Below, one piece after another: positions 3,172 through 35,963 of a stretch of DNA of 64,000 nt. The stretch's first letter is position 1. Each line of letters starts with the position of its first letter. A program made the translations under genes and the position numbers. The notes below the pieces were generated by a model that worked only from the letters and a program-made list of their open reading frames with translations, searched no databases and was not told where the DNA came from. Origin of the DNA: Escherichia coli (GTDB lineage Bacteria > Pseudomonadota > Gammaproteobacteria > Enterobacterales > Enterobacteriaceae); the NCBI RefSeq assembly GCF_048403405.1, contig NZ_CP183129.1; one strand, 5' to 3'.

Positions 3172-6324
<3,153 letters not shown>

Positions 6325-6343
6325 TACAACGTGTAATCACTAA

Positions 6344-6366
6344 GGCCGCGCAAGCGGCCTTTTTTA
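6344..6366 (+). terminator. rho-independent terminator after acrB
   Basis: GGCCGC-gcaa-GCGGCC hairpin followed by a T7 run, 20 nt after the acrB stop. Confidence 0.7.
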
Positions 6367-6869
6367 TGCATAACCTACGAACATTAAGGAGTCATTGAAC
6401 CACCAACTCAGGATCTCATACGAAAACCAGTATTAAACACGTATAAAATTCATAAAAAATACTGATTGTTAGTTAATTTATATTAAGTAGCGCTAATAGA
6501 TTTAATAATCCATAATCATTTAGAGGCTATTCTTAATTATTTGCGGTAATTCTTTATTCATTCCTCGGTTATTACGTCATATTCAGAGCAATCCTGGTAT
6601 TAGTGTTACCAATTTCATCTGGCGATAATCCTGAAATGTTATGAACAGTTCGAGCAAACTGCTTTTACCTGCTGCGGGTTAGTGCTAGTATGAAAAAGTA
6701 AGTCCTGTCCCGCTTCCTTCCTAATTGTAATTTTTCGTAATAATGCGATGAAAACCTGCAAAGAGTGGCTTATAGTTAAGCTAACAAACGAGAGGGCAAG
6801 TCCAGGTCAGTAAGTTTTTTCCATCCCGAAAGGTGTCCGTTAGTTCAACCACTAAGAAGGGGACGCGTT

Positions 6870-7244
6870 ATGGATGAATACTCACCCAAAAGACATGATA
6901 TCGCACAGCTTAAGTTTCTCTGTGAAACCCTGTATCATGACTGTCTTGCAAACCTTGAAGAAAGCAATCATGGCTGGGTTAACGACCCAACCTCGGCGAT
7001 CAACCTCCAGTTGAATGAACTGATTGAGCATATTGCGACCTTCGCACTTAATTACAAAATTAAGTATAATGAAGACAATAAGCTCATTGAGCAGATCGAC
7101 GAATATCTGGATGACACCTTTATGTTGTTCAGCAGTTATGGTATTAATATGCAGGATCTTCAGAAATGGCGGAAGTCAGGTAATCGACTATTCCGTTGTT
7201 TTGTCAATGCGACGAAAGAGAATCCTGCGAGTTTATCTTGTTAG
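6870..7244 (+). CDS. tomB: Hha toxicity modulator TomB (YbaJ)
   Basis: 124-aa [28 protein letters not shown]...; upstream of hha. Confidence 0.93.
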
Positions 7245-7269
7245 AATTATTACAACCATGGGTAGAAGT

Positions 7270-7488
7270 ATGTCCGAAAAACCTTTAACAAAAACCGATT
7301 ATTTAATGCGTTTACGTCGTTGCCAGACAATTGACACGCTGGAGCGTGTTATCGAGAAAAATAAATACGAATTATCAGATAATGAACTGGCGGTATTTTA
7401 CTCAGCCGCAGATCACCGCCTCGCCGAATTGACCATGAATAAACTGTACGACAAGATCCCTTCCTCAGTATGGAAATTTATTCGCTAA
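7270..7488 (+). CDS. hha: haemolysin expression modulator Hha
   Basis: 72 aa [35 protein letters not shown]... from internal ATG of table ORF 7024..7488. Confidence 0.95.
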
Positions 7489-35507: not shown

Positions 35508-35963
35508 TCTGTAAATATTATTTAGCTGTAGTAATCACTCGCCGTAATTATTACGGCTAAATAAACATCAGCATCGCTTATTAATATTTGTTCTTTTGTG
35601 CGGCTTAGCGTCTGGAAATTATTGACGTCATTTATGAATTCTATTTTTCTTACACGATTCAGCTAATGAGTCTTTATTTTCTCACTACCCAGTTGTCACC
35701 TTAATGATAATTATTTGTTAAATAATTGTTTTATTTCGCATTGGTTATACCAATTGCCCGCCCAGACTCCTTCTGCACTCCCCTTTTGTTATAACGCCCT
35801 TTTGCAACAGCTTCTTAAAATCAACCTGATATGTTTTGCAACATATGTGACCTGGAAGCCAAATCCAAGTAACAGGAATTTAATCATGTTTACAGTAATG
35901 TAACCTTCCCGTAAAATGCCCACACACTTTAAACGCCACCAGATCCCGTGGAATTGAGGTCGT

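Follow-up and report, generated by a model that had tools for sequence, protein, structure and literature searches.

The AT-rich acrB-tomB spacer of Escherichia coli: the mapped tomB-hha promoter and the DNA upstream of it

Hha is a partner of H-NS in gene silencing. The start-site table of Kim 2012 (PMC3415461) places the start of the tomB-hha (ybaJ-hha) operon of Escherichia coli K-12 at 480019(-) in U00096.2, with 53 reads and a tomB 5' UTR of 87 nt, and the same study reports for Klebsiella pneumoniae a single ybaJ start at the orthologous promoter, with a 97-nt leader. Both tomB and hha are CpxR targets in RegulonDB, and tomB belongs to a CpxR expression module (PMC7657598); by ChIP-exo in E. 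coli, tomB was not among the direct CpxR targets (PMC7657598). Furthermore, a LolCDE inhibitor raised tomB expression 5.9- and 11.2-fold, with ytfK induced alongside (PMC5105897). In Yersinia pseudotuberculosis, phosphorylated CpxR shifts the ymoBA promoter in gel-shift assays, and activation of CpxR raises the activity of this promoter in a reporter assay (PMC13353760). The ymoBA operon has two starts, 188 and 106 nt upstream, and between them, 56 bp ahead of the proximal one, is a CpxR motif (PMC13353760).

Here, we compare with these systems the copy of the locus found in a 64,000-nucleotide stretch of E. coli DNA (contig NZ_CP183129.1 of assembly GCF_048403405.1), referred to below as the window. 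An earlier note, made from the letters alone, had singled out positions 6367-6869 as a roughly 500-bp AT-rich untranslated leader or promoter region upstream of tomB-hha. In our analysis, this stretch very probably consists of the mapped tomB-hha promoter and its upstream control region, is for the most part untranscribed, and ends in an 87-nt leader. Published work and databases already cover the promoter, its start site and the link to CpxR, and the DNA concerned belongs to the E. coli core. The spacer serves as a worked example, of modest value, of how a long AT-rich stretch resolves into a terminator, conserved operator islands and a short leader.

The acrB-tomB spacer, its promoter and its leader

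The first 12 kb of the window carry acrR, acrAB, tomB-hha and maa. With the end of acrB at 6324 and the start of tomB at 6870, the spacer spans 6325-6869 (545 bp), nearly all of which is taken up by the flagged stretch 6367-6869. It aligns without gaps to the spacer of MG1655, with a few single-base differences, and the RefSeq annotation of MG1655 has no feature between acrB and tomB. Upstream to downstream, the elements of the locus are as follows.

6342-6367, plus strand: intrinsic terminator of acrB, from the terminator scan; hairpin AAGGCCGC-GCAA-GCGGCCTT (6342-6361) and then a T run
6368-6445, no strand assigned: Escherichia-specific segment of about 75 bp, 3' of the terminator; gaps in all non-Escherichia genera
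6748-6776, plus strand: tomB-hha promoter P1, from the promoter scan; -35 ATGAAA (6748-6753), 17-bp spacer, -10 TATAGT (6771-6776)
6783-6869, plus strand: 5' leader of tomB, 87 nt, with the Shine-Dalgarno sequence AAGGGGA at 6857-6863
6870-7244, plus strand: tomB coding sequence, first gene of the operon (open reading frame list and MG1655 annotation)
7270-7488, plus strand: hha, second gene, after tomB

The G+C content is 0.366 in 6367-6869 and 0.374 in the full spacer, against 0.508 in the window; the flagged stretch is among the lowest 2.8% of all 503-bp stretches, and the spacer core (6400-6599) falls to 0.295. The description of the region as AT-rich and free of a credible open reading frame is thus confirmed (G+C of about 37% versus 51% in the window). 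The expectation that it would be conserved backbone, and unlikely to be novel, is also borne out: the stretch is single-copy core DNA, present in 5423 of the 5426 complete E. coli genomes. AT-richness peaks elsewhere in the window, at 50300-52300 (G+C 0.26-0.36), in an accessory segment that adjoins pgpA. This segment codes for a pentapeptide-repeat protein and occurs in just 936 of the 5426 genomes.

At its upstream end, the spacer begins with the acrB terminator, an 8-bp stem with 6 G-C pairs followed by TTTTTT, which qualifies as an intrinsic terminator. All genera keep the hairpin, and the changes at its base are paired (AAGGCCGC...GCGGCCTT versus GGGCCGC...GCGGCCC). An 'orphan' Rho termination region reported by Adams 2021 (PMC7815308) at 481133(-) corresponds to window position 6445 (Rho score 2.08, p=5.6e-6), and Rho may help to limit read-through from acrB. 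A repeat or mobile element was considered as the source of the Escherichia-specific DNA (6366-6450) and rejected: the DNA is single copy in the 5423 genomes, and its internal repeats are short and unremarkable.

At the downstream end, the promoter found by the scan is identical to the one that Shimada 2014 (PMC3946193) lists for tomB-hha among the constitutive sigma-70 promoters, and the genus-level alignment has it conserved in all genera. The upstream sequence given for the tomB start by Kim 2012 (PMC3415461) ends in ...TATAGTTAAGCTA, which places the start at A6783 of the window, 7 nt past the -10 hexamer. Thus, with hexamers 17 bp apart and a mapped start 7 nt after the -10, P1 is a sigma-70 promoter; it initiates at A6783 and produces an 87-nt leader, in a spacer headed by the acrB-end terminator. 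On the tomB strand, the Kim 2012 table (PMC3415461) holds no other start between the hha-internal ones and acrA. The in-vivo sigmaS ChIP-seq peak likewise lies 0-183 bp upstream of tomB. The idea that this was the promoter region of tomB-hha therefore stands, the scanned promoter being the published sigma-70 promoter, whereas the idea of an untranslated leader of about 500 bp does not, since the mapped start at A6783 confines the leader to 6783-6869.

Within the leader, conservation is moderate and the AAGGGGA ribosome-binding site is invariant in the cross-species alignment. A structured leader or RNA thermometer was rejected: the fold of the E. coli leader is no more stable than that of shuffled sequences (z = -0.21). 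The consensus fold of 72 leaders (RNAalifold, -5.6 kcal/mol) contained only an invariant 4-bp UCCC:GGGG helix that involves the Shine-Dalgarno sequence and has no covariation. Such a pairing, invariant and free of covariation, gives no support to sequestration of the ribosome-binding site, nor does it exclude it.

Several further RNA ends lie beyond the spacer, inside the operon. The Term-seq data of Adams 2021 (PMC7815308) contain a 3' end 72 nt inside tomB, at 480636(-) or window position 6942, with a significant Rho score of 1.66, and another at the hha start codon, at 480307(-) or window positions 7269-7271; these ends suggest that transcripts of the operon are terminated prematurely or processed. 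Promoters for hha inside tomB are also on record, the E. coli starts of Kim 2012 lying 115 and 16 nt upstream of hha (window positions 7155 and 7254). In addition, the scan found TTCGCA-18-TATAAT at 7041-7070, which matches a K. pneumoniae hha start 170 nt upstream of the gene.

Conserved islands upstream of P1

The tomB neighbourhood was fetched from one genome per species, which gave 80 loci, 76 of them with acrB upstream; the set compared comprised 77 sequences, the window and 76 other Enterobacteriaceae species. In the 76 other species, the spacer is 435-559 bp long. The alignment resolved it into conserved islands, listed below, amid variable and otherwise unalignable AT-rich DNA, with most of 6600-6720 and 6370-6445 unalignable between genera.

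6342-6367, plus strand: island A, terminator of acrB; changes at the stem base are paired
6446-6520, no strand assigned: island B, with a column conservation of 0.5-0.65 in otherwise unalignable DNA
6583-6596, no strand assigned: island C, RcsB-type pseudo-palindrome TCAGAGCAATCCTG, a candidate operator centred at about -194 from the start
6630-6649, no strand assigned: island D, CTAACnnnATGAAnnnTAAGGA in most genera and degenerate in E. coli (genus-level alignment)
6725-6742, plus strand: island E, the near-invariant 18-bp block TTGTAATTTTTCGTAATA, followed by the -35 and the -10
6783-6869 (the leader), plus strand: island F, moderately conserved, with the invariant AAGGGGA

Island E contains a direct repeat, GTAAT-N5-GTAAT (6727-6741), centred at -49 and covering -56 to -42. 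The core that was searched for, 17 of the 18 bases with either A or G accepted at one position, occurs in 74 of the 77 sequences. The repeat agrees at 8 of 10 positions with GTAAA-N5-GTAAA, the CpxR consensus that De Wulf is said to have defined in 2002. Matches to this consensus with at most two mismatches occur at chance level in the window (57 versus 50 expected), and the case for island E as a CpxR site is instead made by its near-invariance (74/77), its position just upstream of the -35 and the literature on tomB and ymoBA, not by the motif match alone. Taken together, conservation and the published work suggest that phosphorylated CpxR would bind the repeat at -49 and activate P1 during envelope stress.

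Island C resembles the structure-based RcsB box, TN(G/A)GAN4TC(T/C)NA (PMC7913699). The window sequence TCAGAGCAATCCTG matches 7 of the 8 specified positions, the last A being replaced by G. At the homologous site, all 8 positions are matched in 39 of the 77 sequences and 7 in another 34, including E. coli and Salmonella; the remaining 4 match at 6. The versions encountered are TAAGAATATTCCTG, TAGGAATATTCCTA, TAAGAATATTCTTA and CAGGAATATTCCTG, and the changes among them are symmetric. The distance from the start of the box to the -10 downstream of it is about 200-230 bp in most species. The window shows no enrichment of the strict RcsB pattern, and no report linking RcsB to tomB came up in the searchable papers. 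From these sequence features, we infer that island C is a candidate RcsB operator.

The remaining two islands are less easily matched to described elements. Island B includes CTGATTG at 6462-6468 (CTTATTG in most genera) as well as TTTATTT-like and AATAAG-like motifs, and its AATAAT at 6504-6509 aligns with TATAAT, TATAGT or TATCAT in other genera; the Kim 2012 table has no start site there. Island D contains an ATG, and the short open reading frames that begin at it vary in length and sequence and have no Shine-Dalgarno sequence.

It is possible, if rather doubtful, that the roughly 400 bp upstream of P1 form a conserved long-range control platform, in which the RcsB-type operator and two further islands, together with the CpxR site, feed Rcs and Cpx signals into the level of Hha, and to which the candidate distal promoter P2 described below may add. 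In the mechanism that we propose for the spacer, islands B and D and the RcsB-type box near -194 would serve as distant inputs, perhaps by countering H-NS; this part of the scheme is drawn from sequence only. The combination of the conserved RcsB-type box with islands B and D is the one new lead to come out of the comparison. If the box is used, a second envelope-stress pathway would control hha and, through it, how H-NS silencing is tuned.

As for H-NS itself, the in-vitro genomic selection table of Shimada 2014 (PMC3946193) carries an 'HNS' flag on the tomB spacer. This fits the proposal that the region is of the nucleoid-protein-silenced promoter type, with binding resting on that one in-vitro flag. 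Judging from conservation and the literature, H-NS would coat the upstream AT-rich DNA and so damp both the promoter and read-through from acrB.

A PdhR operator in the spacer was also considered and rejected. The PdhR-like sequence ATTAGTGTTACCAAT at 6599-6613 breaks the GGT core of ATTGGTnnnACCAAT (GGTnnnACC), occurs in the window at chance level (2 matches versus 2.74 expected), is not conserved outside E. coli, and lies away from the published PdhR peak. That peak, a weak one from in-vitro selection that was assigned to tomB, is inside the 3' part of acrB, at about window position 6032, and the published 8/14 PdhR box assigned to tomB is on the minus strand at 5854-5870, also inside acrB. 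A perfect PdhR box, ATTGGTTATACCAAT, is present at 35740-35754 in the ampG-cyoA spacer; we take it to be the PdhR operator already known from the cyoABCDE promoter.

The middle of the spacer differs among Escherichia lineages. E. albertii, E. whittamii, L002 (Escherichia sp. E1V33) and L003 (labelled E. coli) carry a version different from that at 6600-6720 of the window. Their version has an insertion of 19-21 bp and lacks two elements of MG1655-type E. coli, the PdhR-like site and the extended -10 that resembles P2.

Other readings of the upstream DNA

One further element lies between islands D and E.

6664-6691, plus strand: candidate distal promoter P2, TTTACC, a 16-nt spacer and TGcTAGTAT (extended -10), in the window and MG1655

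Its start is predicted near 6698, which would give a leader of about 172 nt. A conditional second promoter, either P2 or a site in island B, could produce a leader of this length that includes the CpxR site, and bound CpxR would then block the distal transcript and activate the proximal promoter. In its favour, P2 is a reasonable extended -10 promoter, in MG1655 as well as in the window, and the motif TGnTAxAAT occurs at 39-49 bp on the upstream side of the CpxR block not only in E. coli (window and MG1655) but also in Citrobacter, one of the two Salmonella loci, Klebsiella and Raoultella. Moreover, the two ymoBA starts of Yersinia (188 and 106 nt) flank the CpxR motif there, RNA polymerase-sigmaS has an in-vitro selection peak in the distal spacer, at about window position 6348 (PMC5493296), and the start-site datasets span few growth conditions. 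However, the motif is absent from the Enterobacter clade, from two other sampled Escherichia lineages (L002 and L003), and from E. whittamii and E. albertii; no P2 start appears in the Kim 2012 listings for E. coli or K. pneumoniae (PMC3415461), where only the proximal start is recorded; and the sigmaS peak observed in vivo is the proximal one. We regard a distal promoter of this kind as unlikely.

Less likely still is the view that the DNA lying further upstream than about -60 plays no part in regulation and is neutral AT-rich filler. It would account for the failure of most of 6600-6720 and 6370-6445 to align between genera and for the degeneration of islands C and D in E. coli itself. Against it stand a length held at 435-559 bp across the 76 other species and an RcsB-type palindrome that nearly all species retain, through symmetric changes, at a distance of about 200-230 bp from the -10; the conservation of island B and the H-NS flag on the spacer also speak against filler. 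A mapped promoter with an upstream control region thus remains the preferred reading of 6367-6869.

The earlier note had further proposed that the upstream part might carry a small RNA. In the Kim 2012 table (PMC3415461), which covers few growth conditions, the tomB strand has no upstream start site. On the opposite strand, to which the Cappable-seq evidence used here is confined (PMC4782308), no start was recorded between 479800 and 480699 (U00096.2), and the acrR start at 484940 is present in the same table, which serves as the control; given the absence of opposite-strand starts over this interval, an antisense or divergent transcript was rejected. The Term-seq data of Adams 2021 (PMC7815308) contain no RNA 3' end within the spacer, and the terminator scan found no terminator-like site there other than that of acrB. 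Searches against Rfam returned only weak terminator look-alikes for the window spacer at E values up to 10, and no match for 8 related loci at E values up to 0.01. The roughly 415 bp upstream of 6783 are therefore not detectably transcribed on their own in these datasets. With no start or 3' end of its own, no covariation and no family match, the region does not qualify as a small RNA or a cis-regulatory RNA. Under the laboratory conditions sampled, these datasets contain a single tomB-proximal promoter and no upstream transcript, which is the outcome that the earlier note had itself named as refuting its reading; for these conditions, the proposals of a long leader and of a small RNA fail, the latter also finding no backing in starts on either strand, 3' ends or Rfam matches.

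Coding content is equally sparse. The sole open reading frame of at least 30 aa in the spacer is a 40-aa frame on the minus strand (6639-6761) that begins with TTG and overlaps the promoter block, and the ATG frames are 10-21 aa long, none with a Shine-Dalgarno sequence. Across the 77 spacers, open reading frames cluster only where they cross the invariant promoter block, and there all three codon positions are invariant, which points to constraint on the DNA rather than to coding. Small open reading frames were accordingly rejected, as they have neither a ribosome-binding site nor a conserved length and their cross-species clusters are an artefact of the invariant promoter DNA. We find no separate RNA gene or small-protein gene in the spacer. 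An independent small RNA or small protein encoded in the upstream part, as the length of the spacer (kept at 435-559 bp), its conserved islands and the conserved ATG of island D might suggest, is highly improbable, given the absence of starts on both strands, of 3' ends, of any terminator-like site but that of acrB, of Rfam matches in the window or the 8 related loci, and of short frames with a Shine-Dalgarno sequence or a conserved length and sequence.

Comparison with known systems

The tomB-hha (ybaJ-hha) promoter of E. coli K-12, as described in RegulonDB/EcoCyc and by Shimada 2014, is identical to that of the window in its hexamers, start site and flanking genes. There is no substantive difference between the two, and the window carries a strain variant of the same locus.

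The ymoBA operon of Yersinia is orthologous to tomB-hha, and its CpxR motif, about 56 bp upstream of the proximal start, compares with a repeat at -56 to -42 here. In Yersinia, a second mapped start lies upstream of the CpxR motif, whereas E. coli has at the equivalent place a sequence candidate only, P2.

With H-NS-bound AT-rich promoter regions, the spacer shares a low G+C content (0.30-0.37), a long upstream region and an in-vitro H-NS flag. Unlike a horizontally acquired island, it is core, vertically inherited DNA.

Compared with the RcsB consensus box, the tomB versions of E. coli and Salmonella miss the last specified base (7/8). The validated RcsB boxes at osmB (-215) and ytfK (-161) of Salmonella (PMC7913699) are placed much as the candidate tomB box is, which similarly lies about 200 bp upstream, and the RcsB-regulated ytfK is co-induced with tomB by the LolCDE inhibitor (PMC5105897).
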